Shown in pieces: positions 16,103 through 40,104 of a stretch of 41,124 bases of DNA. This DNA is from Bacteroidota bacterium (GTDB taxonomy: Bacteria; Bacteroidota; Bacteroidia; Flavobacteriales_D; JABDKJ01), in assembly GCA_024279715.1 (NCBI GenBank), contig JAJRRH010000154.1, positions 1 through 41,124 on the forward strand, written 5' to 3'. The notes below the pieces were generated by a model. It was not told the origin of the DNA. It did no database searches and saw nothing but the letters and a program-made list of their open reading frames with translations. Each line of letters starts with the position of its first letter. Within the stretch, counting starts at the first letter, position 1. Position numbers and translations under genes: made by a program.

Positions 16103-17280
16103 TCAACCGTACGCACATCATATATATCTCTCAATCGATTGCCGATAAGCATGAAGGAGAGAACCATAACCATGATACATAGACCAGGGATCACCGCTAA
16201 ATACGCTAGGTCTGTGGTGATAAATGGATAGTGGTCTTTGATCATCATGCCCCATGAAGGCATTGGTATCTGTGTGCCTATACCTAAGAAGCTAAGGCCT
16301 GCCTCAATGAGAATAGCAGAAGCGAAATTTGCTGCTGAAATGACTATTACTGGTCCAATAATATTGGGGAGAATATGTTTGGATATTATTCTATACTCCG
16401 AGTAACCGAGGGCTTTACCAGCCTCTACATAATCTAATTCTCGTGTGCTAATCACCTGTCCACGTACTACCCGTGCTACCTCTACCCACATAGTCAGTCC
16501 TACAGCAATAAACACTTGTACAAACCCTTTTCCCATCACAAGAGTAATAGCTATGACCATCAACAATGTCGGAATTGACCAAATCACATTTACAAACCAC
16601 ATTATCACATTGTCTATCCACCCTCGATAATACCCAGCAACTGCCCCCAAAGTAACTCCTATTACCAAGGATATCAATACAGAGATAAATCCAACAGACA
16701 ATGAAAATATTACCCCTCCCATCAATCGACTCAAAAGATCTCTTCCAAAAGTGTCTGTCCCTAAATAATAGGTTCTTCGTTCGATATTACGAAGCACATC
16801 ATTGTTAATTTCCGCAGAAGACATTCTAACGTCAGTTCCATCAATCGATACAAAACTTGCTGCATCATTAATGAATTGATAAGTGCTATCCACCATTGGG
16901 TACAAAACATCTGCGACCAACAAATTCTTTTCTTCGACTTCATCTAATGGCAAGAAAAACAATCTATCGCCTTCGATTCTATAATTCTGAATAGCAATTT
17001 CTCTGTACTCTCCCTCAGTCCCTCCAAAGAAAAGTCCCCCCAAAAGAGTACTGCTTTCTAATTTTTGGTTCTTCCGTACTTTTAGAATAGATACAGAATA
17101 CCCTGGTTTTTTCTTAGCCAAGACCAAGTTTTGCTTATTGGCATTTCTTGTGCCATCTGGTCGAATATATCCGCCCAAGACAGAAATCACTAATGCCATC
17201 ATTAGAATCACTAATCCAATGCGGGATCGGCTATCTTTCCATAATCGCGAGAAAAAACTTTTTTGTTCTGTCGTACTCAT
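16099..17280 (-). CDS. ABC transporter permease (OppC/DppC type) with large periplasmic insert
   Basis: LGTDTFGRDLLSRL, EAA-loop YVEAGKALG, HILPN, EAGLSFLG and PSWG.MI. Confidence 0.92.
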   Translation of the reverse strand: MSTTEQKSFFSRLWKDSRSRIGLVILMMALVISVLGGYIRPDGTRNANKQNLVLAKKKPGYSVSILKVRKNQKLESSTLLGGLFFGGTEGEYREIAIQNYRIEGDRLFFLPLDEVEEKNLLVADVLYPMVDSTYQFINDAASFVSIDGTDVRMSSAEINNDVLRNIERRTYYLGTDTFGRDLLSRLMGGVIFSLSVGFISVLISLVIGVTLGAVAGYYRGWIDNVIMWFVNVIWSIPTLLMVIAITLVMGKGFVQVFIAVGLTMWVEVARVVRGQVISTRELDYVEAGKALGYSEYRIISKHILPNIIGPVIVISAANFASAILIEAGLSFLGIGTQIPMPSWGMMIKDHYPFITTDLAYLAVIPGLCIMVMVLSFMLIGNRLRDIYDVRTVD

Positions 17281-18401
17281 TTTTTATATCTCCGTCCCTT
17301 CCAATTAAAATGTCCGAGTTGCGACTTAATGAAAACCATTGGGACAAATAGAAGTTGGATAAATATACTTAAAGGGTAAAACCAAAGAGCAGTAATTTTT
17401 TTAAACTTATAAGCAACCACTATTAAATAAAAGAAGTCTATCAAAACCTTTATACTAAAGACATACAGGAACAATTCTAATGCTTTAGATTCGAAAAAAC
17501 AAGCGACTCCAAGTCCCCAAATCATTATATACGTGAGGAGCACTGTCCACGCGACAACGGAAGTTGTGCGATCATTGTAGTGCATAGACTTTGAGGTCCA
17601 CCTCGCTCTTTGGTTTAGTAGGTCACTGAAGTTGTTAAAAGCAGAAGTCCTTGCGATTACAAATTCGTTCCATAACACACCTACGCCTTTAGGATACTTA
17701 GACTTAACTTGATGCATAAAAAACACATCATCCCCAGAGGCAATATGCTTATCCTTGGCATCGCTTCTGAATTCGTTGAAGACAGATTTTTTGAAAACAA
17801 AATTTGCACCATTACATATAATTGGGTTGTCAATTACTGCCCAAGCGGACGTAGTTCCAGCGAGTGCAAGTACATCCAAAGACTCAAACCAGCCTGCAAT
17901 GGATTTCTCGTTCTCAATTAGAACTGGTAGTATTAACATCTTCTTAGTGTCATCACTAAATACTGTTCGCACTTCATTCAACCACTCAGAGTGTAGGTGA
18001 ACATCAGCATCTAAAGTGGCTATTAAATCGAAACTTGCTTGCGCTATTCCAGAAGCAATAGCTCCTTTTTTCCCTGTTTCCGTTGAATTAATAATTTTAT
18101 AATCCCTGCTAAAACTTTCAAAAATGTACTCCTCTGTTTTATCATTACTCTGGTCGTCCACAAATATGATTTCAACCGAATGATTTTTAAAATTCATTTT
18201 ATCCAATGAACTAATGACTTTGACAATACGTTCTCTTTCATTTCTGAAGGGTATGATGATCGAGATTGGTATTAAACTATCCCTTTGGGTCTTTTTTACT
18301 TGATGAAACAATAAGATGACACATTGATACATTACCAACGCCGAGTATAGCACTATGAGAAAGAGTGACAGAAATCCTAAAACGGAAAAAAGATCAGTCA
18401 T
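17277..18401 (-). CDS. Glycosyltransferase family 2 (membrane-bound, processive-type motifs)
   Basis: SIIIPFRNE, VDDQSND, DAD, CNGAN, SGDD and QRARW, with N- and C-terminal TM helices. Confidence 0.92.
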   Translation of the reverse strand: MTDLFSVLGFLSLFLIVLYSALVMYQCVILLFHQVKKTQRDSLIPISIIIPFRNERERIVKVISSLDKMNFKNHSVEIIFVDDQSNDKTEEYIFESFSRDYKIINSTETGKKGAIASGIAQASFDLIATLDADVHLHSEWLNEVRTVFSDDTKKMLILPVLIENEKSIAGWFESLDVLALAGTTSAWAVIDNPIICNGANFVFKKSVFNEFRSDAKDKHIASGDDVFFMHQVKSKYPKGVGVLWNEFVIARTSAFNNFSDLLNQRARWTSKSMHYNDRTTSVVAWTVLLTYIMIWGLGVACFFESKALELFLYVFSIKVLIDFFYLIVVAYKFKKITALWFYPLSIFIQLLFVPMVFIKSQLGHFNWKGRRYKK

Positions 18402-21051: not shown

Positions 21052-21093
21052 ATAATGCAAAGATAATAAAAAAATAGTATTGCTAGGGCCACT

Positions 21094-21130
21094 AAAAAAA
21101 AGAGCACCTTTCGACAAGAAAGATGCTCTT
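21094..21130 (-). terminator. Intrinsic terminator of the receptor-cargo-porV operon
   Basis: Minus strand AAGAGCATCTTTC-TTGTC-GAAAGGTGCTCTT followed by a T tract, 19 nt after the porV-like stop. Confidence 0.8.
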
Positions 21131-21149: not shown

Positions 21150-22196
21150 TTACATATCTATTCTAATCCCAATTCTATGATTTCCATCAAACTGGTTTGT
21201 ATCTTGATAAGAATAATCAAATCCTAAAACTCCTCCTTCATCATTGATAGGCACTTGAAGTGAAAGACCCGCACCGATACCGGTAAGAGAATTAGCAGTA
21301 TTAACTGTACCTATATTGGTTTCGTACATATAACCACCTCTTAAAGCGAAAGATTTACCAAGTCTATATTCTATACCAAATCTATACTGATCGTAAGTAA
21401 AAGAATTTGAGGTAAAGCTCCCAGAAGCAGTAATTTCATTTTTCTCATTCAGTAAGAAGTCGTAACCAACTCCCATTGAAATTAAAGAAGGTAATTCATA
21501 GTTCTCAGCTCTTTGATCGAGAGTCGTTACATAATCATTCAGGTTATCTTCCTGGATAATAGTAGAAGTGCTAAGCCCATCGCCTTCGTATTTCATGGTA
21601 GCTCCAACGTTCTTAAGATTTATACCAATTTTTATTTGATCTTTCTCACCAGTCACATACTGGATACCTGCATCAAATGCAACGCCGCCAGCTTTAAGAT
21701 TGTGTATAGATTCTGAAATCAACTTTACACTAACTCCTCCATATATACTGTTTGAGAATTCTTTAGCGTATGACAATCCAAGTATTGATTTTTTCACACT
21801 AAAAACAGATCCATTTCCATCAGGAACTAATGTAGTAGAATTGTTAAAATCTCCAAAATCAATAAAAGAATATGATATTCCTATAGTTGAAGACTCTCCT
21901 GCTTTTACACCAAGTGCTAATCCATATACTCCAACATCAGATCCTACCATATACCGAGTATTGGTGATTGCTACCTCCATTTTATTGACAAATGCCAATC
22001 CAGCAACATTCATAAAGGATCCTTCAATACCACGTACCGTAGCAATGTTGGAACTCATCAGTCCGGTACTTCGTGCCCACGGGTTTAGCAACAACTGCGT
22101 TGCACCAGCAGAACCTATTCTATCTTCATTTCCAGCATACGTATTTGTTGAACCAAATAACGCCATTGCGGTTAATATTAATATAATTTTCTTCAT
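21150..22196 (-). CDS. PorV/PorQ family outer-membrane beta-barrel
   Basis: Signal peptide, GSAGATQLLLNPWARSTG (the PorV FL.I...AR..G-type motif), N.AGLA, G.S.K.ISE, AFDAGIQY, G..LKNVG, LP.....G.GY and GIEY......LRGGY. Confidence 0.85.
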   Translation of the reverse strand: MKKIILILTAMALFGSTNTYAGNEDRIGSAGATQLLLNPWARSTGLMSSNIATVRGIEGSFMNVAGLAFVNKMEVAITNTRYMVGSDVGVYGLALGVKAGESSTIGISYSFIDFGDFNNSTTLVPDGNGSVFSVKKSILGLSYAKEFSNSIYGGVSVKLISESIHNLKAGGVAFDAGIQYVTGEKDQIKIGINLKNVGATMKYEGDGLSTSTIIQEDNLNDYVTTLDQRAENYELPSLISMGVGYDFLLNEKNEITASGSFTSNSFTYDQYRFGIEYRLGKSFALRGGYMYETNIGTVNTANSLTGIGAGLSLQVPINDEGGVLGFDYSYQDTNQFDGNHRIGIRIDM

Positions 22197-22225
22197 AGTT
22201 TGCTTAATTATAATATTGTTTGATT

Positions 22226-25200
22226 TTAGAAGTCGTTGAGATCAAGTTTCCTAGTCACTCCAAACCATTTCACTACTTTATTCCCAATTCCTGGGGCATC
22301 GATATAGAATATATAAGCACCACCTGAAATAGGAATACTGTATTCATTCTTTAGATCCCATTCTAAGTATGTAAGATCATTATCTTTTGCTAAAGATCTC
22401 ACAAGAGTTCCAGATGTATTGAATATTTTAATCGTACACTCAGGAGGAAGATTGATGATTTTCACTCTATTATCCAACCTGCTATTTTCATAGTATGAGA
22501 ATGCATAATAAGGATTAGGTACCACATTGATTAAATCTAATGCACTTTCTGCAGTTGGTAAATCATTTATCACCGTTGTTGCTCCTTTAGTGCTAAACTT
22601 GTATAGAGGGAACCAATCATTCTCAGATAACGCTGCCATGTCATCGTCATATAAATCCACATCATCATAATCAAACAATCCATCAGGAGCAAGGTAAGGC
22701 GCCTCAAAATGTTTCGCAATGGTTGGATATCTCTGATAAGGTTTTTTAACCCTTAGTTTAATTGACACCTCATTTGGTATCAATCCATCCTGTACAGACT
22801 TCAACTCAAAACCTTCCTTAAGTAAAGGAAGCATTACCCAACTTATGGATGTCATTGCCGACTTTCTTAGTCCCACTGGTTTTGCATACGCATATTTGAA
22901 GAAACGTTTTGCTCCATCATAACTACCAACTCGGTCATTGTCACCTTTTCTTCGAGCCTCATTTCTGAATACGTAAATATAATGCATTCCACCAAATTTT
23001 GCATTTGCAGCACTTTCAGTTTCAAGGAAAGGATTCCACATTTGAGAGGTAGGATTCCAGATCATATCATCTCCATTTTCAGTTCCGAGGTAGCTATTTT
23101 CACCAAATGCCATATTCAATCTCTCACCTGTTTCAACATCTATTGCATATCCTGGGAACCATCCATAGCCAAAACTTTTTCCGATAAGATCTTCGTCTGG
23201 ATGATTGTTCCAATCACCTCCCCAGACTAATTTCTTCCATGATTCTTTCACATCATCATTAAAACTTTGACCACTACTGCCAGGCCACATATCATCATCA
23301 AGAAATGACTGGGTGATATTTTGTGCGCCAAAGTAAGATATCTCATCGGCATTACCGCCTTCCAATATATTCTTACCGTTCTTATCCACAGACAAAGCAA
23401 CTCTTGGGTAGAGTTTAAATGCCATACCTCCATCCGTATTCACTGGGAATTTTTGAATTTCTAGCACCGGTACTCTCGACCATTTAGATTTGTCATCTGT
23501 AAGTATGATGTCCACATTATTGATTTCTTCAAACCTTGTGGAAGTTGAGTTATTATTATTAGCTATATCCACAGGACCATTCCAGTTATGACCAGCCGTA
23601 ATCCACGGACTAACTGTACCACCAAGCACTCCAGCGTATTCAGAATTAGGATCTGGCACTCCTGAATTAACGGCGTTATAGTAACATTCATCATTGACAT
23701 CCGCATCTTCTTGATCAACTCCTTCCGGACAATCCCCTTGAGCAGTTCCAGAGCGTATCCAATTTTGCTCAGAGAAAACATCAACATCATTAACGCCAGT
23801 CAACCATTCGTTCGAAGGGTCATCAAATGTCATTGTAGCCCCAATAAATTCTGGTCTTCCACCTTGAATCGTCGTGAAATCGGTCACTTCTTTCTGCACA
23901 AGCTCTATCGATATTCCATAATCAAGCAATAAATATTCTTCTTGTACGCTTAGGGTTTTTGATGATTCTCCGATAACAGTTCCACTGCCATCAATTATCT
24001 CCCACTTTGTTTCTGTCGCATCAATTTCTGCTCCCTCACTTGGGTTGCCATCTTCTGAATGGAAGAATCGAATTTTGAAATCACCATCTTTTACATTCAA
24101 TGGATCGATTACTTTAATAGCTACCGGAGAACCTCCAGCTTTATATTCAAGTTCATCCACAATCCATGGAGATCCATCCATGATTTCATCAATACTTTTT
24201 TGGCTTAGCTCTAAGAAATTGTCACCTGTTCCAACACCTTCAACTCTGGTTAGAGGTAATAAATCTCCATAAGAAGCTGATATGATGGAGCCATTAGTTT
24301 CTGATTCTGTTTTATGAGGTATACCTTTTATTGCCGTAATCTCAGAGTTATTATAAGATAAACGCCCTTCTAAATATGGTGTTGCTTGCCCTTCCCCAGT
24401 ACCATCTTGAGCTATTGAAAATGGTGCCCATTCATTATAGGCATAAGCAATAACCATAAAGTAGTAAGGTTTATGATTGATCAGTGCTCCTCCTGAGAAT
24501 TTATCAGTTACCACTCTAAATGAATGTTTAATACCATCATCCGTACCTTGTACTTCTTCAACATAGTTGAATCCTCCAGATCCTGCTACTGCCGTCACAT
24601 TAAATATATCGTCCACACCATTATCAATATCCACTTGTGTGATTAGTCTTGCACGTTCTGCATCTTCAAGATCGGCAGCCTTCACTGTTCCGTCAAACAA
24701 CTGGTACACTTTATATCCTTCAAATCTGTAGTTTTTATCTTCTCCATCAGGAATACTAGCATCACTTTCTACATAAGATTCTGTTGCATCCGTTTGACTA
24801 AGATATAGAATTATCTCTTGGTCTAATTCTTGAATTGCTAACCCTGGGGCACCAGGCCCGTCCAAAATTTGGAAACAGTTATCAAACAATGCTTGCGCTT
24901 TATCATCCGCAATAAACAATGCATCTCTTAATGCATCAATTCCACCAGGTGCTTGTGCCCAAACCACACCTACCGTGATATTGTTAAACTCCCCAGGATC
25001 CAGCGTAAATGGTCCAGCAGACTGTAAGAATCTTCTATCTCCTTTCTCATTTCCATCAGTCTCTTCAGACCAAGGTTCTTGGACAAGACCGTTTGTACCG
25101 TAACCAAGTGGATCTGAATCACCAGGCACCACATAGTCACAAATCACATCGCCGCCTAAACCATCTCCACCATACGTGAAAGGCGCGCCATTTTGCCATC

Positions 25201-26569
25201 TACCAGTTAAATAATTATAGAATTCGACTGCATTTCCTGGATCAGTTTGAGGATTTGTACGCTGTCTATCATAATAAACGAATTTACTCATTCCTAGTCG
25301 TTCGTTATCCACAATAGTATCTGGCTCGTCCACATTTGGGTCATAAAATCCAAGACCAATACCTGGATAAGGTATAGCATTTTCGGATTCCCATAAGTTA
25401 GGATTGGGATCAATTAAGTTGTTGATACCATCTGCATCCATATAAGGCCCTTCAAAGAAATCAATTCCGACTGCAGGAGGGTCATCTCCATATCCTGGTG
25501 TACCCGAAACGGATTCGTCAAATTCATCCCCATTGTATGTGTATCCTAATCCTCTTTGCACGTCACAACCCACATAATCATCTTCACTGAAACCAACATC
25601 GGCATCAGCATATTGACCAAAATAAGTGTTTTGCAGTGTCTGAACCCCTCTATTAATCATTACGTAATTATAAAAGGTCATATTGTTAATCTCATCTGTT
25701 GTACCGTACACGAAAGCTTGGGCTTGTATTTCCATTCCAATTGGCTCACCATCCGTAGAACCAGTATGAATACCTCCATTATCATTGAACACCCACCACA
25801 GATTTTCATCTCCAAATAACGGGATTAAATCTTGCGGCCCTCTTGATCTACAATCCACATCACCAGCAATATCATATCCTGGGAAATCACCTTCTGCAGG
25901 ATTGTAGATGCCGTTTTCGCCTTCTGTTCCTACTCGTTCGCCGAAAGGTGCTAATCTAAATGCAAACCCCTCTGTTGGATTATTCCCAGGCCACTCATCA
26001 AAATATGCAGGATATGAATACCCATTTTCAAATGGAGGCTCGTTAATTGCTTCTGGTGGACACTCTCCAGCCGCAATACATTCTAAGGTACTCCAATATA
26101 AATTATGCAGTTGAACATCAGCCAAGCGGGTATGATAATGTCTATCATACTTTTGACATAACACATTCAACGCTGTAGCGCTTCCATCCACAGACAATGG
26201 CCCATTCCAATAATCGGTAGCACCACCTTGTCTATAAAGTACCGCTGCAAGTTTTAATTGTTGATCAGGTGTACGACCACCCATCCACAGTCCACCAGCG
26301 AAAAGGGCATTTACTCCTTGCCCACTAGGCACTTCATAAAGTGGGTTACTTTGATCATACCAAAGCAAACCGCTCGATTCAATACCAAACTCAACGTTAT
26401 TCAAGTTCAATGTAACATAAGCCGTTGGTGGAAAACAGGACTCTGATTTCTCCATTAATTTTTCGGAAGAATTGTTCACAGGTTGTACTCCCGGCAATTC
26501 TTTGTTTTTTGCATCAAGTCCAAAAGTCGTTAGACTGATTAATGCTATTAATAATATACTTTTTTTCAT
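22226..26569 (-). CDS. 1447-aa secreted protein of unknown function with T9SS-like C-terminal sorting domain
   Basis: Signal peptide and an Asp/Gly/Asn-rich body. C-terminus INVVPNPYY...VKIINLP..CTIKIFNTSGTLVR...WDLKNE...ISGGAYIFYID......VVKW. Confidence 0.8.
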   Translation of the reverse strand: MKKSILLIALISLTTFGLDAKNKELPGVQPVNNSSEKLMEKSESCFPPTAYVTLNLNNVEFGIESSGLLWYDQSNPLYEVPSGQGVNALFAGGLWMGGRTPDQQLKLAAVLYRQGGATDYWNGPLSVDGSATALNVLCQKYDRHYHTRLADVQLHNLYWSTLECIAAGECPPEAINEPPFENGYSYPAYFDEWPGNNPTEGFAFRLAPFGERVGTEGENGIYNPAEGDFPGYDIAGDVDCRSRGPQDLIPLFGDENLWWVFNDNGGIHTGSTDGEPIGMEIQAQAFVYGTTDEINNMTFYNYVMINRGVQTLQNTYFGQYADADVGFSEDDYVGCDVQRGLGYTYNGDEFDESVSGTPGYGDDPPAVGIDFFEGPYMDADGINNLIDPNPNLWESENAIPYPGIGLGFYDPNVDEPDTIVDNERLGMSKFVYYDRQRTNPQTDPGNAVEFYNYLTGRWQNGAPFTYGGDGLGGDVICDYVVPGDSDPLGYGTNGLVQEPWSEETDGNEKGDRRFLQSAGPFTLDPGEFNNITVGVVWAQAPGGIDALRDALFIADDKAQALFDNCFQILDGPGAPGLAIQELDQEIILYLSQTDATESYVESDASIPDGEDKNYRFEGYKVYQLFDGTVKAADLEDAERARLITQVDIDNGVDDIFNVTAVAGSGGFNYVEEVQGTDDGIKHSFRVVTDKFSGGALINHKPYYFMVIAYAYNEWAPFSIAQDGTGEGQATPYLEGRLSYNNSEITAIKGIPHKTESETNGSIISASYGDLLPLTRVEGVGTGDNFLELSQKSIDEIMDGSPWIVDELEYKAGGSPVAIKVIDPLNVKDGDFKIRFFHSEDGNPSEGAEIDATETKWEIIDGSGTVIGESSKTLSVQEEYLLLDYGISIELVQKEVTDFTTIQGGRPEFIGATMTFDDPSNEWLTGVNDVDVFSEQNWIRSGTAQGDCPEGVDQEDADVNDECYYNAVNSGVPDPNSEYAGVLGGTVSPWITAGHNWNGPVDIANNNNSTSTRFEEINNVDIILTDDKSKWSRVPVLEIQKFPVNTDGGMAFKLYPRVALSVDKNGKNILEGGNADEISYFGAQNITQSFLDDDMWPGSSGQSFNDDVKESWKKLVWGGDWNNHPDEDLIGKSFGYGWFPGYAIDVETGERLNMAFGENSYLGTENGDDMIWNPTSQMWNPFLETESAANAKFGGMHYIYVFRNEARRKGDNDRVGSYDGAKRFFKYAYAKPVGLRKSAMTSISWVMLPLLKEGFELKSVQDGLIPNEVSIKLRVKKPYQRYPTIAKHFEAPYLAPDGLFDYDDVDLYDDDMAALSENDWFPLYKFSTKGATTVINDLPTAESALDLINVVPNPYYAFSYYENSRLDNRVKIINLPPECTIKIFNTSGTLVRSLAKDNDLTYLEWDLKNEYSIPISGGAYIFYIDAPGIGNKVVKWFGVTRKLDLNDF

Positions 26570-26632
26570 ATTATGGATGTAATTATATTACGGGTGAATT
26601 TCACCCAAAAATCAATTGTCTTTTCTCTGTGT

Positions 26633-29600
26633 TTAAAAATCCATTCGTACACCTATCTGGATCGTACGAGCCATTCCGTAGTTGTAAGGGTTTTCAAGTC
26701 TTAAGTTATAATAATTTGTGAAAGCAGCAGAATCTTCAGCACCATCAATTTCTTGCTGACCAATACCTGAAGTTAGGTAGCCATCATTACTTGGTGAACC
26801 CGTGTAGGAATATACATTACGTACAATCTTTGTGTTCAATAAATTGTTAACTAACAGATACACATTCATGTTGCTAGTCTTCGCTTTGTCTTTTTCATCA
26901 TCTTTTCCAAATTTTAACGTGATATCACGATCAATTTGAAGATTCAACTGTGCTGATCCAGGCATATTCGCACCATTTATTGATCCATTTAGCCCTCTTG
27001 CACCGTCTAATAAACTACCTGCTATTTTTCTAGAATTGTATGGTGTTCCTGATCCTATATCCGCTATCAGGTTAGCCCCCATATTCTGGAATACTTTCTT
27101 ACCAAACCATACTGGCCCATTATAATCACTCCCTGAACCATATCTATAATCCATAACAATGTTTATAGCGTGTCTTCTATCATAATCCACAGGATTGATA
27201 ACTCTTAAGTTTGGCTCACCATTTCTTGCCAAGGTCTGACCCGAAGCAGAGTTTGAACCAGTACTATTTGCGAATTGCAAAGTGTAATTTGCGAGAAGTC
27301 TTACATTACCTGTACGACGTAGATCAAACGCGAAAGTCATTCCTTTTACCGTACCAAAATCAATATTTTCATACGTTAGATAATTGTTTGGCCATGCATT
27401 CGCTAAAAACCTAACATTCAATTGATCACTCATATCACGATAAAACCCTGAAATCTTTAAGGAAGAGCTCTTTGTTAACACTTGCTGAAACCCTAGTTCA
27501 TAGTCTACTGTTCTGGAAGGACGAAGATTTGGATTGTTTGTCACAGAATTACTTCTTGTCTCAATAAAGTCATAATGAACAAGATTTAATCTGTTTTGAC
27601 CAGCACCTGGTCTTTGTGTCAGTACGTCATAATGGGCGAAAAATACCGCCTCATCAGATATTGGAAATGAGAATGCTAAACGAGGCATCACGTTTATTAC
27701 CGGCTGATAATCAACAAAAGCTTGAGGGTCTAGGAATTGTGAACCATCGGCAGCAACAGTCTCCGGTGTCAAGTATGGCACTACAGTAGAGCTTTGAATT
27801 AAATCTGGACTACTTACAAACACACCGTCTGCAGTATACCAGTCATTTCCATCTCTATACCCAACAACATTTACGGTACTCGCTTCATAGTCCTCTACAT
27901 ATACCACATAATCATCACCAATATTGGAAGGTGCTTGAAGATTATCAATTGGATTGTTACCCACTGTATAGTAGTCACCTACTATATAATTATCCTTTAA
28001 CACTTTTTGATTTGCATCATATCTATCTACTCTGACACCAACATTGAAGATAATATCATCAAAGGAGAATTTATCCATCAAGAAGAATGCATTGTAAATT
28101 GGTCTAAAAGCACCCAACTGTTTCGTTTTATATCCTTTATCATCTACCGCATTGAAATAGTCATCAAAACTTGGATCAGAAGTAAGTTTATTACCCTTGT
28201 GATCAAAACCATAATAACTTACTAGTGACGATCCATTAGCCAAAAGATCATCTGCACTAAACATGTCTATGCTCAACTGCTCAGGACTTACAGCATCAAT
28301 ATTTGCTTGTTCGATATCATTTAAGCCCATTGACTCTCTAAAGTTCAGGTTAAATAGTGTTGGGTCATCTGTAGCTGCCAACGCCCAATCATATTGAAAA
28401 AATCCATCCACTGGCACATCACTTTGAACGGAACCAACCACTTCCGTTTGTCCACCTAACAGTTGACGACCACGAGTCCATAGTCCAACAGGAGCGAGAT
28501 CATATCCTCTATCAACTCTTTGTTCATATTCGACCCCAAGTGTAATGGCATGGTCACCAACATCCGCAGAACCAGATGCTACTAATCGCATTTGGCTATT
28601 ATCTCTTTTTCGGTATAAGTTATTTGCTAATCCAGGAGCATTCCATAATCTATAAATACTCCTTGGCACATCTCCGTTTCTTAATACACCTGCAGCAGAA
28701 ATATTCTCTAGACTCATCGTTGCATTAGGATCATCAATTGAATTGAAATATTGACTGGTAATTCCTGCCAAATCTGGATTCACTGAAGATGGCGTAAAAA
28801 CAACTAAAGTATCTTGCACACCACTTTGGTGCATAGCTCCATTTTCAAATTCATACGTTTTTGTTTGGAAAATATCGAACTTTCCAACATGCCCATATCC
28901 AAAGAAGTTCTCTCCATGCTGTTTATCTTCTATCACTCTGTTGAATTTAGAGTAATCTGCACTAATTGTGTAAAAAGCATTCTTGATTTTAGCCTTACTA
29001 TCTGCACTATCATCAGACTTAAATCGCTGAGTAAACCTCACATACGTTCTCCAAGAAAGATCTTTTCTGTTTTCATTATTTTTATAGTTCAACAATGAGT
29101 TAGAACGTCCTTGTCCACCGGGGAATCCATTAGTTCCTGTATATCCTCTAAAAAGAAATTCATTTGTATTCAGATAATCACCAGATGCTCCCACAGAAAG
29201 TGTCACATCCGGACTAACATTATAATCTATTTTACCAGAGACAGATGCACCTGTTCTACCTGCATTTCTACTAGCAGCTCTGTGCTCGAAGTCACCGGCC
29301 TGTAATAAATTTGCTCTAGAAGAGGTACTATAGGAAGTAGATCCATCGTCGTTTAAAACTTCAGAAATAGCAGAAGGGTTCGCCTCTATATCTGCCAATA
29401 CATCATCTTTTACATACCAGTTACCAATAGCGGATGGACGTGAATCTTCAAACTGACGCACATTACCTGACAAGAAGAATCCTAGTATTGGAGAGGTCTT
29501 AGTGCCTGCTGAATCTTTTCTAAAAACCAAAGGTCCGGCGAAGAATCCCTCCAATTGAGTTCTTCCAAAAGCATCTAACCCGACATTCTTATCTCCTGAT

Positions 29601-30331
29601 CTAAATCCAGATGTTAAAAAATCAAAACCGCCAAAGAAAGTGCTTTGCGCACCCCGAGTAGTAATATTAATCACTCCCCCAACAGCATCACCAATATTAG
29701 CAGGTAATCCACCTGTAATTACTGACACTTCTTGAATTGCTGCTTTAGGAAGATTCGCACTTCCTCTAACTTTAATACCATCGATATATACAAAAGTATC
29801 ACTACTTCTTGCTCCCCTCACAGAAACTTCCCCTTCGGCCGTACCTGAAGAAGACACCCCACCAACAGTACTTGCTACGGATGTAGCAGAACGGGCAGAC
29901 ATTTTGGATATATCCTCCCTAGAAACTGACCCCCCAGAAGAACCTCCATCTTTTTCAATCAAAGGTTTTTTATACTGAACAATAATCACTTCATCAAGAT
30001 TAACTCCTGATTCCATTAAGAAATCTTGGTACTTTATTTTACCACCTGCAACAACAACACCTGAGACCACACGAGGATTATAACCAACAAAATCACATCT
30101 AACATTATATGTGCCAACAGGAATTGGCTTTATAGTGAATTTTCCATCAAAGTCCGTAGCACCTGCTGCAACTTGAGTCCCTCCATTTAACACAACAACT
30201 GTTGCAAATGGCAAAACCTCACCTGTGGTCTTATCTTTGACTATTCCTTTAAGTGTACCTGAAGTCGATTGAGCTACTGCACCTGCAGTAATTAATAGAC
30301 ATAAAAACAATGAGTATAGATTTCTTAACAT
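26633..30331 (-). CDS. TonB-dependent receptor with N-terminal carboxypeptidase-regulatory-like domain
   Basis: GTLKGIVKD..TGE.LPFATV, TDFDGKF.I, plug motifs VRGAR....VYIDG and VITGG.PA..G...GGVINI.T, PRLAFSFP, YELGFQQ and terminal ARTIQIGVRMDF. Confidence 0.9.
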   Translation of the reverse strand: MLRNLYSLFLCLLITAGAVAQSTSGTLKGIVKDKTTGEVLPFATVVVLNGGTQVAAGATDFDGKFTIKPIPVGTYNVRCDFVGYNPRVVSGVVVAGGKIKYQDFLMESGVNLDEVIIVQYKKPLIEKDGGSSGGSVSREDISKMSARSATSVASTVGGVSSSGTAEGEVSVRGARSSDTFVYIDGIKVRGSANLPKAAIQEVSVITGGLPANIGDAVGGVINITTRGAQSTFFGGFDFLTSGFRSGDKNVGLDAFGRTQLEGFFAGPLVFRKDSAGTKTSPILGFFLSGNVRQFEDSRPSAIGNWYVKDDVLADIEANPSAISEVLNDDGSTSYSTSSRANLLQAGDFEHRAASRNAGRTGASVSGKIDYNVSPDVTLSVGASGDYLNTNEFLFRGYTGTNGFPGGQGRSNSLLNYKNNENRKDLSWRTYVRFTQRFKSDDSADSKAKIKNAFYTISADYSKFNRVIEDKQHGENFFGYGHVGKFDIFQTKTYEFENGAMHQSGVQDTLVVFTPSSVNPDLAGITSQYFNSIDDPNATMSLENISAAGVLRNGDVPRSIYRLWNAPGLANNLYRKRDNSQMRLVASGSADVGDHAITLGVEYEQRVDRGYDLAPVGLWTRGRQLLGGQTEVVGSVQSDVPVDGFFQYDWALAATDDPTLFNLNFRESMGLNDIEQANIDAVSPEQLSIDMFSADDLLANGSSLVSYYGFDHKGNKLTSDPSFDDYFNAVDDKGYKTKQLGAFRPIYNAFFLMDKFSFDDIIFNVGVRVDRYDANQKVLKDNYIVGDYYTVGNNPIDNLQAPSNIGDDYVVYVEDYEASTVNVVGYRDGNDWYTADGVFVSSPDLIQSSTVVPYLTPETVAADGSQFLDPQAFVDYQPVINVMPRLAFSFPISDEAVFFAHYDVLTQRPGAGQNRLNLVHYDFIETRSNSVTNNPNLRPSRTVDYELGFQQVLTKSSSLKISGFYRDMSDQLNVRFLANAWPNNYLTYENIDFGTVKGMTFAFDLRRTGNVRLLANYTLQFANSTGSNSASGQTLARNGEPNLRVINPVDYDRRHAINIVMDYRYGSGSDYNGPVWFGKKVFQNMGANLIADIGSGTPYNSRKIAGSLLDGARGLNGSINGANMPGSAQLNLQIDRDITLKFGKDDEKDKAKTSNMNVYLLVNNLLNTKIVRNVYSYTGSPSNDGYLTSGIGQQEIDGAEDSAAFTNYYNLRLENPYNYGMARTIQIGVRMDF

Positions 30332-30569
30332 ACAATTTGGTTTGTTGAATTTGTTTCTTCAATTAAATAATCGAAGGACGTAAAGATATATATTTAATTA
30401 TCTATTTTACAAATAAAAAATACATTATGATATTGCAACCAATATCTTCTTTGAATAACCCTTTGAAAACTAATTCTTTTAATAATTCATGGGACAAATC
30501 TAATATAAGAAATTAATATCTCCCTATAATTACACCAAAGTATTTCAAAAATATTACAGTTCTATGGCT

Positions 30570-39148: not shown

Positions 39149-39523
39149 ATGAAAAAAGTGACTTGCGTACGATTAGAAGCTAACGAGAAACAAATTCAAC
39201 GATGCCATGAGTCTATTCGCCTTGTTGAAGTCCATATTATTGAATTGGCAAACGTTCTGAATCTTGTTGGAAATGCTGTTCGACTCAAAATAGTGTATTT
39301 ACTGCATGCTGAAAAAGAATTATGTGTATGCGATATAAGCGATGTGCTACAGATGAACGTTTCGGCCATCAGCCAACACTTAAGAAAATTAAAAGATGGC
39401 GACCTTGTCACAGCCAAGAAGGAGGGGCAAACAATTTATTATTCGATAAAAGAGGATTATAGAAAGACGCTTTCTCCGATTTTTAGGCAGATAAATTCAC
39501 TGAAAAAAATGGAATTGGTATGA
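39149..39523 (+). CDS. ArsR/SmtB family metal-sensing repressor
   Basis: RLKI..LL, ELCVCDI, SAISQHLRKLK..LV...K.GQTIYYS, plus N-terminal Cys residues (TCVR...QRC). Confidence 0.93.
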   Translation: MKKVTCVRLEANEKQIQRCHESIRLVEVHIIELANVLNLVGNAVRLKIVYLLHAEKELCVCDISDVLQMNVSAISQHLRKLKDGDLVTAKKEGQTIYYSIKEDYRKTLSPIFRQINSLKKMELV

Positions 39524-40104
39524 AAAAGGAAAATGCGGTTTTAGGCTCGGGTGTTATAGCAGCGTTAGCAGCATCTTCTTGTTGTATCCCACCTGTGGTT
39601 GCAGCCATAGCGGGAATTGGAGGTGTCTCTTCAGGGCTTTCCTGGATGGAACCCTTGCGCCCCTATATGATTGGTCTGGCTGTAGTTTCTATCGGCTACG
39701 CTTGGTATGACCACCTTAAACCCAAAAAAGAGACGGATTGTTGCCCCTTAGAAAAACCAAAATTTTATCAAAGTCGAAGTTTTCTCATTGGTATCACACT
39801 TTTTTCTCTAATCTCGATTGGGTTTCCATACTTTACAAAGGATTATTTTCCAGAGAAACTAACCAACGACACCATCGTTACGACGGAAGAAAATATGGAG
39901 GAAAAGCGAATTGAAATAGAAGGAATGACATGTGTAAGTTGTGAGCATCACATGAATACTGCACTAATGAATTCAGACGGTGTAATAGAAGCTTCCTCAT
40001 CTTTTGAAGAAGGATATACAAACGTACGATATGACAAAACCAAGACTGACTTAGAAACACTTAAAAAGCAAATCGAGAACGAAACTGGCTATAAAACAAA
40101 ATAA
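39520..40104 (+). CDS. merTP: Mercuric transport protein, MerT-MerP fusion
   Basis: MerT part AASSCCIPP...EPLRPY...DCC with 3 TM helices, fused to an HMA domain GMTCVSC. Confidence 0.88.
   Translation: MKKENAVLGSGVIAALAASSCCIPPVVAAIAGIGGVSSGLSWMEPLRPYMIGLAVVSIGYAWYDHLKPKKETDCCPLEKPKFYQSRSFLIGITLFSLISIGFPYFTKDYFPEKLTNDTIVTTEENMEEKRIEIEGMTCVSCEHHMNTALMNSDGVIEASSSFEEGYTNVRYDKTKTDLETLKKQIENETGYKTK

Follow-up and report, generated by a model that had tools for sequence, protein, structure and literature searches.

Three neighbouring genes that encode a TonB-dependent transporter (TBDT), a giant secreted protein and a barrel of the PorV/PorQ family keep the same order from genome to genome, the barrels form a group apart within their family, and the giant has a core and a tail of recognisable fold. 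The best explanation, to which we give even weight for and against, is that the three products build one outer-membrane module, an uptake complex that does not depend on SusD. With somewhat less than even confidence, we further suggest that the triad arose long ago as a second means of surface capture for TonB-dependent import and is spread across Bacteroidota classes. A giant supersandwich protein delivered by the T9SS would be held by its uncleaved, specialised tail in a fourth PorV-family lineage docked on the transporter, and this lipoprotein-free "utilisome" would parallel or maybe predate SusC/SusD, one copy of it having become a near-universal core gene set of the order.

In the window, the whole 41,124-nt stretch of DNA that was analysed, the three genes are separated by gaps of 63 nt (TBDT/giant) and 29 nt (giant/barrel) and closed by a single terminator-like hairpin (Table 1); the ORF coordinates and a hairpin scan thus reproduced the genes, sizes, spacing and one terminator read from the letters in the earlier note. 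The terminator-like stem (21130-21100; 13 pairs, 5 of them G-C, followed by TTTTTTTAGTG) is the longest of the whole scan, and terminator-like sites as such were not enriched in the window (8 versus 5.5 +/- 2.2 in shuffles). Two matches to TAnnTTTG, which we take to be the Bacteroidota -7 element, sit in the AT-rich 238 nt that precede the transporter gene and weakly suggest a promoter there. The motif is absent on the minus strand from both intergenic gaps and not enriched in the window (53 versus 48 +/- 6 expected), and a sigma-70 promoter scan of the window was uninformative (48 sites versus 39.4 +/- 5.3 expected). When 33 further ORFs of the window were scanned with Pfam, no SusD family member, no Peptidase_C25 (porU) and no degradative CAZyme came to light, the sole CAZyme-type match being a GT2 glycosyltransferase at 17277-18401; the lack of SusD, CAZymes and porU that had been claimed for the neighbourhood therefore holds, for CAZymes of the degradative kind. 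No regulator or inner-membrane sugar transporter was found near the locus, which adjoins greA.

Table 1. Features of the three-gene locus, in window coordinates.
Feature	Position	Strand	Evidence
TBDT gene, 1232 aa, signal peptide	26633..30331	(-)	ORF
Carboxypeptidase-regulatory-like N-terminal extension of the TBDT, residues 26-106	30014..30256	(-)	PF13620 CarboxypepD_reg, 56.4 bits
TonB-box-like DEVIIVQY, residues 113-120, between N-terminal extension and plug	29972..29995	(-)	read by eye
Plug domain, residues 135-220	29672..29929	(-)	PF07715, 34.6 bits versus cut-off 23.9
Giant secreted protein gene, 1447 aa, signal peptide, not a lipoprotein	22226..26569	(-)	ORF
Predicted beta-supersandwich core, residues 45-569, the part conserved phylum-wide	24863..26437	(-)	AF2 model and VIA-align
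Predicted CTD-like beta-sandwich tail, residues 1337-1439	22253..22561	(-)	AF2 model and fold search
PorV/PorQ-family barrel gene, TBDT-linked group, 348 aa, signal peptide	21150..22196	(-)	ORF
Intrinsic-terminator-like hairpin and T run, 3' end of triad	21090..21130	(-)	hairpin scan
Two TAnnTTTG matches, possible promoter (weak)	30495-30502 and 30546-30553	(-)	motif scan

The giant occurs in 198/201 genomes of the order and in all 166 of the high-quality ones, counts in which related genomes are non-independent observations. At 29 non-self loci, a TBDT gene lies upstream in 28 and a PorV-like gene downstream in 27; every miss is a contig or locus end, and the gene order is constant given enough flank. 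Beyond the order, 15 of the 19 larger loci examined in other orders and classes had all three genes, so that the neighbourhood search bears out the conservation of the triad proposed earlier. A locus search with a narrower alignment yielded mainly genomes of uncultured organisms, and none of its 80 best matches belonged to a model organism. The genome of the window itself carries a second, distantly related triad on contig C62, whose three parts are homologous to those of the window pair by pair.

The transporter carries a stretch, DEVIIVQY, that resembles a TonB box. No Pfam barrel model matched the window transporter alone. Its C-terminal 377 residues align with the transporter of the C62 triad, itself a PF00593 match, and among 20 members of the transporter family Pfam found CarboxypepD_reg in 20/20, Plug in 18/20, TonB_dep_Rec_b-barrel (PF00593) in 10/20 and OMP_b-brl_4 (PF25183), which we take to cover Oar-type barrels, in 5/20. 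A profile of the 20 matched the solved TBDTs colicin I receptor (4e-25), a SusC homolog (1.2e-23) and PhuR in its barrel region (8.8e-21). Judged by these comparisons, the protein probably ends in a beta-barrel of the TBDT type. TIGR04056 (SusC/RagA) did not match the window transporter at E <= 0.1, and its relatives scored 84.1 (an orthologue) and 30.7 bits against a cut-off of 368.25; these scores, together with the SusD-free window ORFs, rule out membership in the SusC/RagA subfamily with a SusD partner.

The triad nevertheless resembles SusC/SusD (RagA/RagB) in the order of the transporter parts (carboxypeptidase-regulatory-like extension, TonB-box-like stretch, plug, barrel), in a next gene that encodes a surface partner, and in the location of paralogous triads among CAZyme genes. 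It differs (i) in the partner, a non-lipoprotein of 1000-1800 aa outside the SusD family, built on a supersandwich core and ending in a CTD-like tail; (ii) in the third gene, for a PorV-family barrel; and (iii) in a transporter family far under the SusC/RagA cut-off.

What is the giant? It has no Pfam family, and its only NCBIfam match, by residues 1334-1423 to the C-terminus of PorZ, is weak (E 0.0077); since neither database assigns it an enzyme family, we rejected it as a recognisable enzyme. Compared with solved structures, its sequence gave nothing meaningful (best E 0.29). A protein-atlas search with the whole giant returned only unnamed clusters, the nearest named one, Por_Secre_tail at 0.91, being merely a lead, and residues 900-1325 had no usable atlas match and were assigned no fold or family. 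Relatives are numerous, with 3710 at E <= 0.001 among 7998 candidates scored.

An AF2 model of residues 30-900 (pLDDT 85.2, pTM 0.82) contains a beta-supersandwich, which VIA-align matched to dextran dextrinase residues 157-466 (Z 18.7, 254 aligned residues at rmsd 3.2), at Z 17.8 to the N-terminal domains of glucodextranase and glucoamylase, and at Z 16-18 to GH94, GH116 and GH65. The matched ranges lie near the chain N-terminus (35-275 of bacterial glucoamylase 1lf6_A, 19-262 of glucodextranase 1ulv_A). As to an (alpha/alpha)6 catalytic domain, most of the top matches stop by about model residue 540, and the later model is mostly beta. In the model, the supersandwich is thus like the non-catalytic, sugar-binding N-terminal domains of GH15, GH94 and GH65 enzymes; no catalytic or binding site was identified in the giant, and the supersandwich fold by itself shows no function.

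At the extreme C-terminus, the AF2 model of residues 880-1447 (pLDDT 81.6) predicts an Ig-like beta-sandwich fold like that of a type A sorting domain. This tail contains VVPNPYY (1349-1355), and the protein terminates ...KLDLNDF. For this part (model residues 458-560), the top fold match was the PorZ tail (5m11_A 684-776; Z 10.1, rmsd 2.4, 88 aligned, 24% identity) and the second PorU (6za2, Z 7.9), with Foldseek E-values of 1.5e-5 and 8.2e-4, respectively; weaker matches were mirolase (Z 6.9) and the tails of RemA, RemZ and NucA (6.4-6.7). The same tail lies below the cut-off of every T9SS tail sequence model: Por_Secre_tail PF18962, TIGR04183 and the type B model CHU_C PF13585 (14.3 bits versus 27). 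Likewise, none of 29 non-orphan tails reached 27 bits with PF18962 or TIGR04183, and 9 gave sub-threshold matches. The "CTD-like end" of the earlier note therefore stands as a fold, closest to the PorZ and PorU tails, but not as a match to a T9SS sorting-domain sequence model. The failure on Por_Secre_tail, CHU_C and TIGR04183 counts against T9SS export of the giant, which we put forward as presumed.

The window barrel matches the PorV/PorQ family model NF033709 over its full length (136 bits versus a cut-off of 90) and fails the equivalog models of both PorV (NF033710, 55.4 bits versus 250) and PorQ (NF033711, 72.8 bits versus 220). PorV2 (NF052325) gave no match at E <= 0.1, and the PorP/SprF model TIGR03519 gave 18.7 bits against a cut-off of 90.55. 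The PorV of this genome (474 bits) adjoins a Peptidase_C25 gene (porU) on contig C98, its PorQ is on contig C2 (342.6 bits), and PorV2 (485 bits) and PorU2 (697.5 bits) are on contig C139. The separate porU-porV pair led us to reject the window barrel as the housekeeping porV, and this pair and the failure on the equivalog models support the earlier suggestion of a private PorV paralogue.

In five other genomes, 12 of the 27 genes of the PorV family match no model narrower than that of the whole family, and the family is expanded to 14-15 genes in some genomes. When 52 barrels were placed in a tree, 34 TBDT-linked rows fell on one side of a branch with an SH-aLRT of 89, a value from a quick method and not strong support, separate from PorV (99), PorQ (100) and PorV2 (96); one row inside this group, L080, has no recognised adjacent TBDT. 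The TBDT-linked barrels thus appear, from their sequences, to form a fourth PorV-family group, new here.

Does the giant tail bind this barrel? A complex model of the two scored 0.86 versus 0.01 for the best of 3 controls, a pass that may reflect likeness instead of specific binding, as PorV-tail complexes are already solved (8gl6, 8gl8, 8glk). In the benchmark, a score of 0.86 was reached by 58/80 solved complexes and 2/110 mismatched pairs. At least 92% of contacts recur between runs, and partner pLDDT is at least 79. The model supports binding of the giant tail to the barrel and so supplies a predicted interaction for the complex first imagined from the letters. According to an excerpt of PMC10202324, PorZ and PorU are the two T9SS proteins whose tails are reportedly retained, that of PorZ on PorQ and that of PorU on PorV. 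The triad resembles PorQ-PorZ and PorV-PorU in pairing a PorV-family barrel with a protein that ends in a CTD-fold tail, and in the modelled tail-barrel binding, but its barrel falls in a separate group and is encoded with a TBDT rather than a sortase. It is also reminiscent of PorP/SprF and type B proteins such as SprB, where a cargo gene is followed by the gene of a cognate barrel, its proposed anchor (excerpt of PMC10202324); there too, the triad barrel is of another family and the giant is no CHU_C protein by the scores given above.

How could the three products work together? Although it starts with a signal peptide, the giant lacks any Cys in its first 40 residues, hence a lipobox Cys, and it would therefore need to be anchored by other means. 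We propose that it is exported by Sec and then, presumably, by the T9SS, and that its non-canonical CTD stays uncleaved and bound to the dedicated PorV-like barrel, as happens to the tail of PorZ at PorQ and to that of PorU at PorV. This hold would tether the giant, a non-lipoprotein, at the cell surface. The barrel would sit beside the TBDT, a contact suggested by synteny and parallel trees; the supersandwich and Ig-like domains would bind a substrate, in all likelihood a glycan, which the giant would then pass on to the transporter to be imported with TonB power. The giant may thus do for the TBDT what the lipoprotein SusD does for SusC.

Alternatively, the triad may serve surface display only: the barrel would anchor or shuttle the giant and nothing else, and the TBDT would be merely co-regulated, without complex or hand-over. 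We consider this improbable, although the tail-barrel contact is the sole interaction with model support, PorZ-PorQ, PorU-PorV and the PorP/SprF barrels of type B tails are known cases of cognate barrels (in the same excerpt of PMC10202324), and four orphan giants (L087, L088, L217 and L219) have no adjacent TBDT or barrel gene. Contrary to what display alone would suggest, a TBDT gene lies beside 12/12 group barrels in the five genomes, and in 2/12 of these paralogous loci it is the direct neighbour of the barrel gene, with the giant-like gene elsewhere. The TBDT tree shows the same main split (98) and agrees with the barrel tree down to the small pairs, although linked genes share their history anyway, and parallel trees and synteny are thus no proof of a complex. 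Finally, the one orphan tail that was scanned, that of L087, is a canonical Por_Secre_tail (49.3 bits), in contrast to 0/29 other tails, which fits a special tail used where barrel and TBDT are present.

The loci of other classes speak for an uptake complex. The neighbours of paralogous triads there include GH16 with malectin, CBM9, a sodium:solute symporter, GHL10, a glucoamylase-like protein, GH28 with a Pel9A-like lyase, CBM4_9 and a sugar-binding protein. The printed gene order of the Rhodothermus marinus alginate locus, described below, points the same way. A gene for a GWxTD-domain protein follows the barrel gene in 5/19 distant loci and in the C62 triad. With this fourth gene and the triads within CAZyme loci, "self-contained", the earlier description of the complex, is too strong. 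As a whole, the uptake-complex reading is partly supported: it withstood the three refuting conditions set in the earlier note, on conservation, the separate barrel and a predicted interaction, and lost in its self-containment and in the T9SS tail sequence match. The window copy is greA-adjacent and near-universal in the order and has no degradative-enzyme neighbours that would point to its substrate.

These same features lend some credit to a housekeeping envelope function, in which the greA-linked triad would serve outer-membrane or surface biogenesis or maintenance in a BAM-like manner, and not nutrient uptake. Both in the window and at seven other loci (L090, L092, L093, L216, L218, L220 and L221), the triad has a fixed place by a HIT gene and greA, and the near-universality of the giant in the order is as compatible with housekeeping as with nutrition. 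A precedent exists in BamA-BamG-BamH (excerpts of PMC12578637 and PMC12611786): BamG is a 14-stranded FadL-like barrel attached to the large barrel BamA, and its outer loops hold the surface protein BamH (PMC12578637), the same architecture as proposed for the triad. BamG differs in belonging to the FadL/Toluene_X family, and the large barrel of the triad is a plugged TBDT, with TBDT profile matches and no BamA features. Moreover, close paralogous modules are located in CAZyme loci, and the F. johnsoniae BAM preparation is reported to be without T9SS components in an excerpt of PMC12611786, on which we rejected the triad as part of BAM. A housekeeping function thus seems distinctly improbable to us.

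Could the TBDT work in the opposite direction? Oar of Myxococcus, a large TBDT with an N-terminal carboxypeptidase-regulatory-like domain, is a precedent for a TBDT handling a protein, but the triad shows no sign of export, and its partner families are T9SS-related. That the TBDT secretes the giant outwards, as Oar does for PopC, with the PorV-like barrel receiving it independently of the T9SS, is very improbable: the failure of the giant tail on all T9SS tail sequence models, the PF25183 matches and a TBDT required for protein secretion cited in an excerpt of PMC9127263 are in its favour, but by fold the tail comes nearest to those of PorZ and PorU, both T9SS proteins, the partner barrel is a member of the T9SS PorV family, the ordinary TBDT barrel model matched half of the 20 transporters, the neighbours at paralogous loci are importers and degradative enzymes, and SprA is present in every giant-bearing family of the phylum sample, a nearly powerless test since the SprA-lacking part comprises one family (0/63) and one other genome. 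With the query used, 90 SprA-positive genomes were without the giant.

Explanations of nutrient uptake in Bacteroidota rely almost entirely on SusC/SusD, and the prediction of PULs depends on that pair. If the triad is indeed a SusD-free uptake module, it would reveal uptake loci missed by present PUL finders, give the expanded PorV family a function and tie protein secretion physically to nutrient import. That its products have no characterised relative, with the giant in every high-quality genome searched in the order, marks a large gap in a well-studied group. The triad is a widely conserved and uncharacterised module, probably ancient, and maybe an alternative to SusC/SusD.

Our searches of main texts found no functional study of the triad, and the term "GWxTD" was not found in the literature searched. 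This agrees with the earlier note, which knew of no functional characterisation, but the triad has already been printed as annotation: in an excerpt of PMC9530828, the alginate locus tonB-hypA-hypB-hypC of Rhodothermus marinus is annotated as TonB-dependent receptor, T9SS sorting-domain protein, PorV/PorQ family protein and hypothetical protein, followed by alginate lyases. In the excerpts of PMC9530828 and PMC6987092, these genes are called hypothetical and are not the subject of study. By printed annotation only, both this locus and Rmar_1070-1072 of the xylan locus (PMC6987092) have the gene order of the triad. In the alginate locus, the gene of the hypothetical protein measures 1398 nt, the size of the GWxTD genes found here.

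The three genes listed in the table, coding for a TonB-dependent transporter (TBDT), a giant secreted protein and a PorV-like barrel, lie 63 and 29 nt apart, and all three products have signal-peptide-like N-termini. They stand among housekeeping genes, with greA and a HIT gene on the downstream side and ahcY upstream, and no SusD family protein, Peptidase_C25 or degradative CAZyme was found among the 33 other ORFs of the window. ORFs, gaps, hairpin and family matches bear out the three-gene cassette described in the earlier note. The small ORF in the table lies 238 nt upstream of the transporter gene; its product opens with a signal-peptide-like sequence, then turns very rich in Lys, Arg and Glu, and was assigned to no family.

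Features of the window and of loci (L-numbers) fetched from the same or other genomes
Feature	Location	Strand	Remark
TBDT gene, 1232 aa	26633-30331	minus	ORF
Giant gene, 1447 aa	22226-26569	minus	ORF
PorV-like barrel gene, 348 aa	21150-22196	minus	ORF
Hairpin, 13 pairs, then T run	21130-21100	minus	downstream of barrel gene
Small ORF, 109 aa	30570-30899	minus	
Second TonB-dependent receptor, 788 aa	35519-37885	minus	CarboxypepD_reg, Plug
T9SS cargo, 819 aa	13125-15584	plus	fn3, T9SS-associated galactose-binding-like domain, Por_Secre_tail
OmpA-family protein	1-1689	plus	start of window
ArsR-family and MerT-like genes	39149-40104	plus	overlapping
Second triad	L012:1135-13280		contig C62
PorV2-PorU2	L013:4452-10552		contig C139
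OmpA/PD40 protein	L014:2027-4042		contig C2
Three tandem giant genes	L083:8662-18099		1033-1048 aa
Cytochrome c-motif and TPR proteins	L077:11162-13330		directly downstream of triad
Cytochrome c-motif and TPR proteins	L080:7867-10092		directly downstream of triad

The same genome carries a second triad, on C62, composed of a 1094-aa TBDT, an 1802-aa giant and a 352-aa barrel, then a GWxTD-domain protein. By sequence, every part is a distant homologue of its window counterpart: the transporters are 25% identical over 377 residues (E 4e-18), the barrels 24% over 310 residues (E 1e-17), and the giants have the tail and a GDRRF...GPF stretch in common. A giant profile search found only these two copies in the genome. 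Next after the GWxTD gene on C62 come a gene for a lipid A acyltransferase and, oppositely oriented, one for a serine recombinase.

How widespread is the triad? Among 7998 candidates scored, 3710 were relatives of the giant at E <= 0.001; at source they are annotated as "hypothetical" or as "T9SS ... sorting/target domain-containing protein", and none of the best 120 had a Pfam domain. The giant was present in 198 of 201 genomes of the order, including all 166 high-quality ones, the three misses being 78-87% complete. In 29 non-self loci of the order, the transporter C-terminus lies upstream in 28 (the miss starts within the giant) and the barrel gene downstream in 27 (both misses end within the giant), with greA and a HIT-like gene next in several. 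Three of the order's six larger loci (L216, L220, L221) have a second full-length giant after the barrel gene and before greA, a TBDT, giant, barrel, giant layout. Across the phylum sample, 147 of 301 genomes had the giant, and the transporter was upstream in 24 of 29 short loci. With order-wide synteny and the full triad, in the same order, in 15 of 19 larger loci from other orders and classes, conservation of the cassette is confirmed. Of the four exceptions, L080 has giant and barrel but no recognised TBDT, L086 reaches a contig end, L087 is an orphan giant and L088, on a short contig, holds two giants in tandem. In 5 of the 19 (L075, L076, L083, L084, L085), the gene right after that of the barrel encodes a GWxTD-domain protein (PF20094 / TIGR04514; about 450-510 aa), and a lone further copy occurs on the short contig C91 of the window's genome; the searched literature held no mention of the term GWxTD. 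In L083, three more giant genes follow the triad and its GWxTD gene, and their tails stop early (...VVQSN), without the usual C-terminal extension. The proteins downstream of the triad in two distant genomes (L077, L080) carry multihaem cytochrome c motifs and TPR repeats.

The window barrel passed the PorV/PorQ family model (136 bits vs a cut-off of 90) and failed the equivalog models for PorV (55.4 vs 250) and PorQ (72.8 vs 220). In this genome (71.6% complete, 207 contigs), five genes exceeded the family cut-off: PorV (474 bits), adjoining a 1312-aa Peptidase_C25 protein on C98; PorQ (342.6 bits) on C2; PorV2 (485 bits), then a 1675-aa PorU2 (697.5 bits; Peptidase_C25, weak FlgD_ig tail) on C139; and two without equivalog fit, those of the window and C62. 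The separate porU-linked porV on C98 rules out the window barrel as the housekeeping porV, in agreement with the private paralogue proposed earlier. PorV2-PorU2 is a second sortase-like pair alongside the ordinary one. C2 carries, two genes from PorQ and after a 937-aa protein whose AsmA-like match is weak, an OmpA/PD40 protein similar to the one at the start of the window (PD40 repeats, carboxypeptidase-regulatory-like domain).

Five other genomes had 5-15 PorV-family matches each. Equivalog models assigned 10 of the 27 genes classified (5 PorV, 3 PorQ, 2 PorV2); of the remaining 17, three fell just below the cut-offs, two fit nothing and 12 matched only the broad family model. Ten of these 12 loci run TBDT, giant-type-tail protein, barrel (one with an extra intervening ORF, one with the barrel gene seen only in a separate retrieval); in the other two, the TBDT gene directly adjoins the barrel gene, with a giant-like gene a few genes off. 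In a 52-row tree, one branch (SH-aLRT 89 by a quick method) set 34 TBDT-linked barrels, counting L080 with no recognised adjoining TBDT, apart from the other rows, and PorV (99), PorQ (100) and PorV2 (96) formed separate clades. On this tree, TBDT-tied barrels are a fourth group of the PorV family. A 32-transporter tree repeated the main split (98) and the small pairs, among them L131+L133, L134+L135 and L128+L129. Because the trees match, whole modules have duplicated and diverged together, which is compatible with joint function; linked genes share history anyway.

The giant has no Pfam family, its sole NCBIfam match is a weak one to the PorZ C-terminus, and it is not a lipoprotein, since its first 40 residues lack cysteine. 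The AF2 model of residues 30-900 (pLDDT 85.2, pTM 0.82) contains a predicted beta-supersandwich (45-569) that matched dextran dextrinase (Z 18.7, rmsd 3.2, 254 aligned), the N-terminal domains of glucodextranase and bacterial glucoamylase (Z 17.8) and GH94, GH116 and GH65 enzymes (Z 16-18), with weak agreement from Foldseek (E 2e-4). The structure search with this model gave no match to a catalytic (alpha/alpha)6 domain. Supersandwich core and tail are the parts conserved phylum-wide.

The model of residues 880-1447 (pLDDT 81.6) has a terminal beta-sandwich (1337-1439), best matched by the PorZ tail (Z 10.1, rmsd 2.4, 88 aligned, 24% identity), then the PorU tail (Z 7.9) and ordinary cargo tails (Z 6.4-6.9). 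PorZ and PorU are the two T9SS proteins whose tails reportedly escape cleavage and remain attached to PorQ and PorV, respectively (PMC10202324). By sequence, the giant tail is non-canonical: of 30 tails scanned, only that of the orphan L087 (49.3 bits) reached the Por_Secre_tail cut-off, and none of the other 29 reached 27 bits for Por_Secre_tail, CHU_C or FlgD_ig (9 sub-threshold matches). The "CTD-like end" of the earlier note therefore holds by fold but not by T9SS tail sequence models. Most tails scanned share a PNPY(Y/F) motif, and most have a conserved C-terminal extension closing in an aromatic residue or Leu. In paralogous loci, flanking enzymes bear canonical Por_Secre_tail domains and the six scanned genes between TBDT and barrel genes had no Pfam match at E <= 1e-4; two tail classes thus occur in one locus.

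Modelled with giant residues 1325-1447, the barrel gave a complex score of 0.86 (runs 0.84, 0.86, 0.86) vs 0.01 for the best of three controls; 58 of 80 solved complexes attained the scoring mark, as did 2 of 110 mismatched pairs. The runs had at least 92% of contacts in common and partner pLDDT of at least 79, and the predicted interface takes in residues 1346-1360, with VVPNPYY at 1349-1355, and the final strands (1432-1442). The model favours the tail-barrel pairing proposed from sequence and supports binding. Because PorV-tail complexes have been solved (8gl6, 8gl8, 8glk), the pass may reflect likeness to these rather than specific binding.

The window TBDT has a carboxypeptidase-regulatory-like domain (residues 26-106), a Plug domain (135-220) and, at the position of the TonB box in SusC-type proteins, a DEVIIVQY stretch that may be a TonB box. 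Among 20 family members, all have the N-terminal extension, 18 Plug, 10 the standard barrel model and 5 OMP_b-brl_4. Their profile matched TBDTs of solved structure, namely the colicin I receptor (4e-25), SusC homologs (1.2e-23, 7.3e-21) and the barrel region of PhuR (8.8e-21); the family scores far below the SusC/RagA cut-off. The second, smaller receptor in the window has no adjoining partner genes.

What does the module do? Neighbours listed for the 12 paralogous modules include GH16 with malectin, CBM9 and a sodium:solute symporter (L127), GHL10 (L124), a glucoamylase-like protein (L130), GH28 and a Pel9A-like lyase (L133), CBM4_9 and a sugar-binding protein (L125), an M14 peptidase, RpiR regulator and DcuC (L126) and SurA-like isomerases (L128, L129), a context that points to uptake. 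In their printed annotation, two Rhodothermus marinus loci resemble the triad. In the alginate locus (PMC9530828), genes for a TonB-dependent receptor (2805 nt), a T9SS type A sorting-domain protein (2181 nt), a PorV/PorQ family protein (1056 nt) and a hypothetical protein (1398 nt) precede alginate lyases; the authors term these genes hypothetical. For the xylan locus, PMC6987092 gives Rmar_1070-1072 as a TonB-dependent receptor, a hypothetical protein bearing a Por sorting domain and another hypothetical protein.

We give an even chance to the best explanation, in which a lipoprotein-free module serves surface capture and import: the retained tail would hold the giant on a dedicated PorV-like barrel sitting at the transporter, and the tethered giant would capture substrate at the surface for import. 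Such a module would be a variation on known themes, uptake through a TBDT and the tethering of a protein to a barrel of the PorV family. The giant might instead be displayed on the surface without a transporter complex. An envelope-biogenesis role is a further alternative: because the window copy is near-universal, in fixed linkage to greA and without enzyme neighbours, it may serve a housekeeping function. An exporter resembling Oar, the Myxococcus TBDT needed for PopC secretion, is the last alternative, set beside paralogue contexts that point to uptake. The module appears in print as annotation only, and the searched literature held no functional study of it. SprA, used as T9SS marker, was found in 237 of the 301 phylum-sample genomes; the giant is absent from all 64 others, and every giant-bearing family has SprA. 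This co-occurrence is a weak test, since the 64 are essentially one lineage (one family, 0/63, and one other genome).

The 819-aa protein, encoded 5.5 kb away from the triad, is an ordinary cargo of the T9SS whose Por_Secre_tail is canonical (45.5 bits). Towards the other end of the window, an ArsR-family regulator gene overlaps the gene of a MerT-like transporter with a fused heavy-metal-associated domain.
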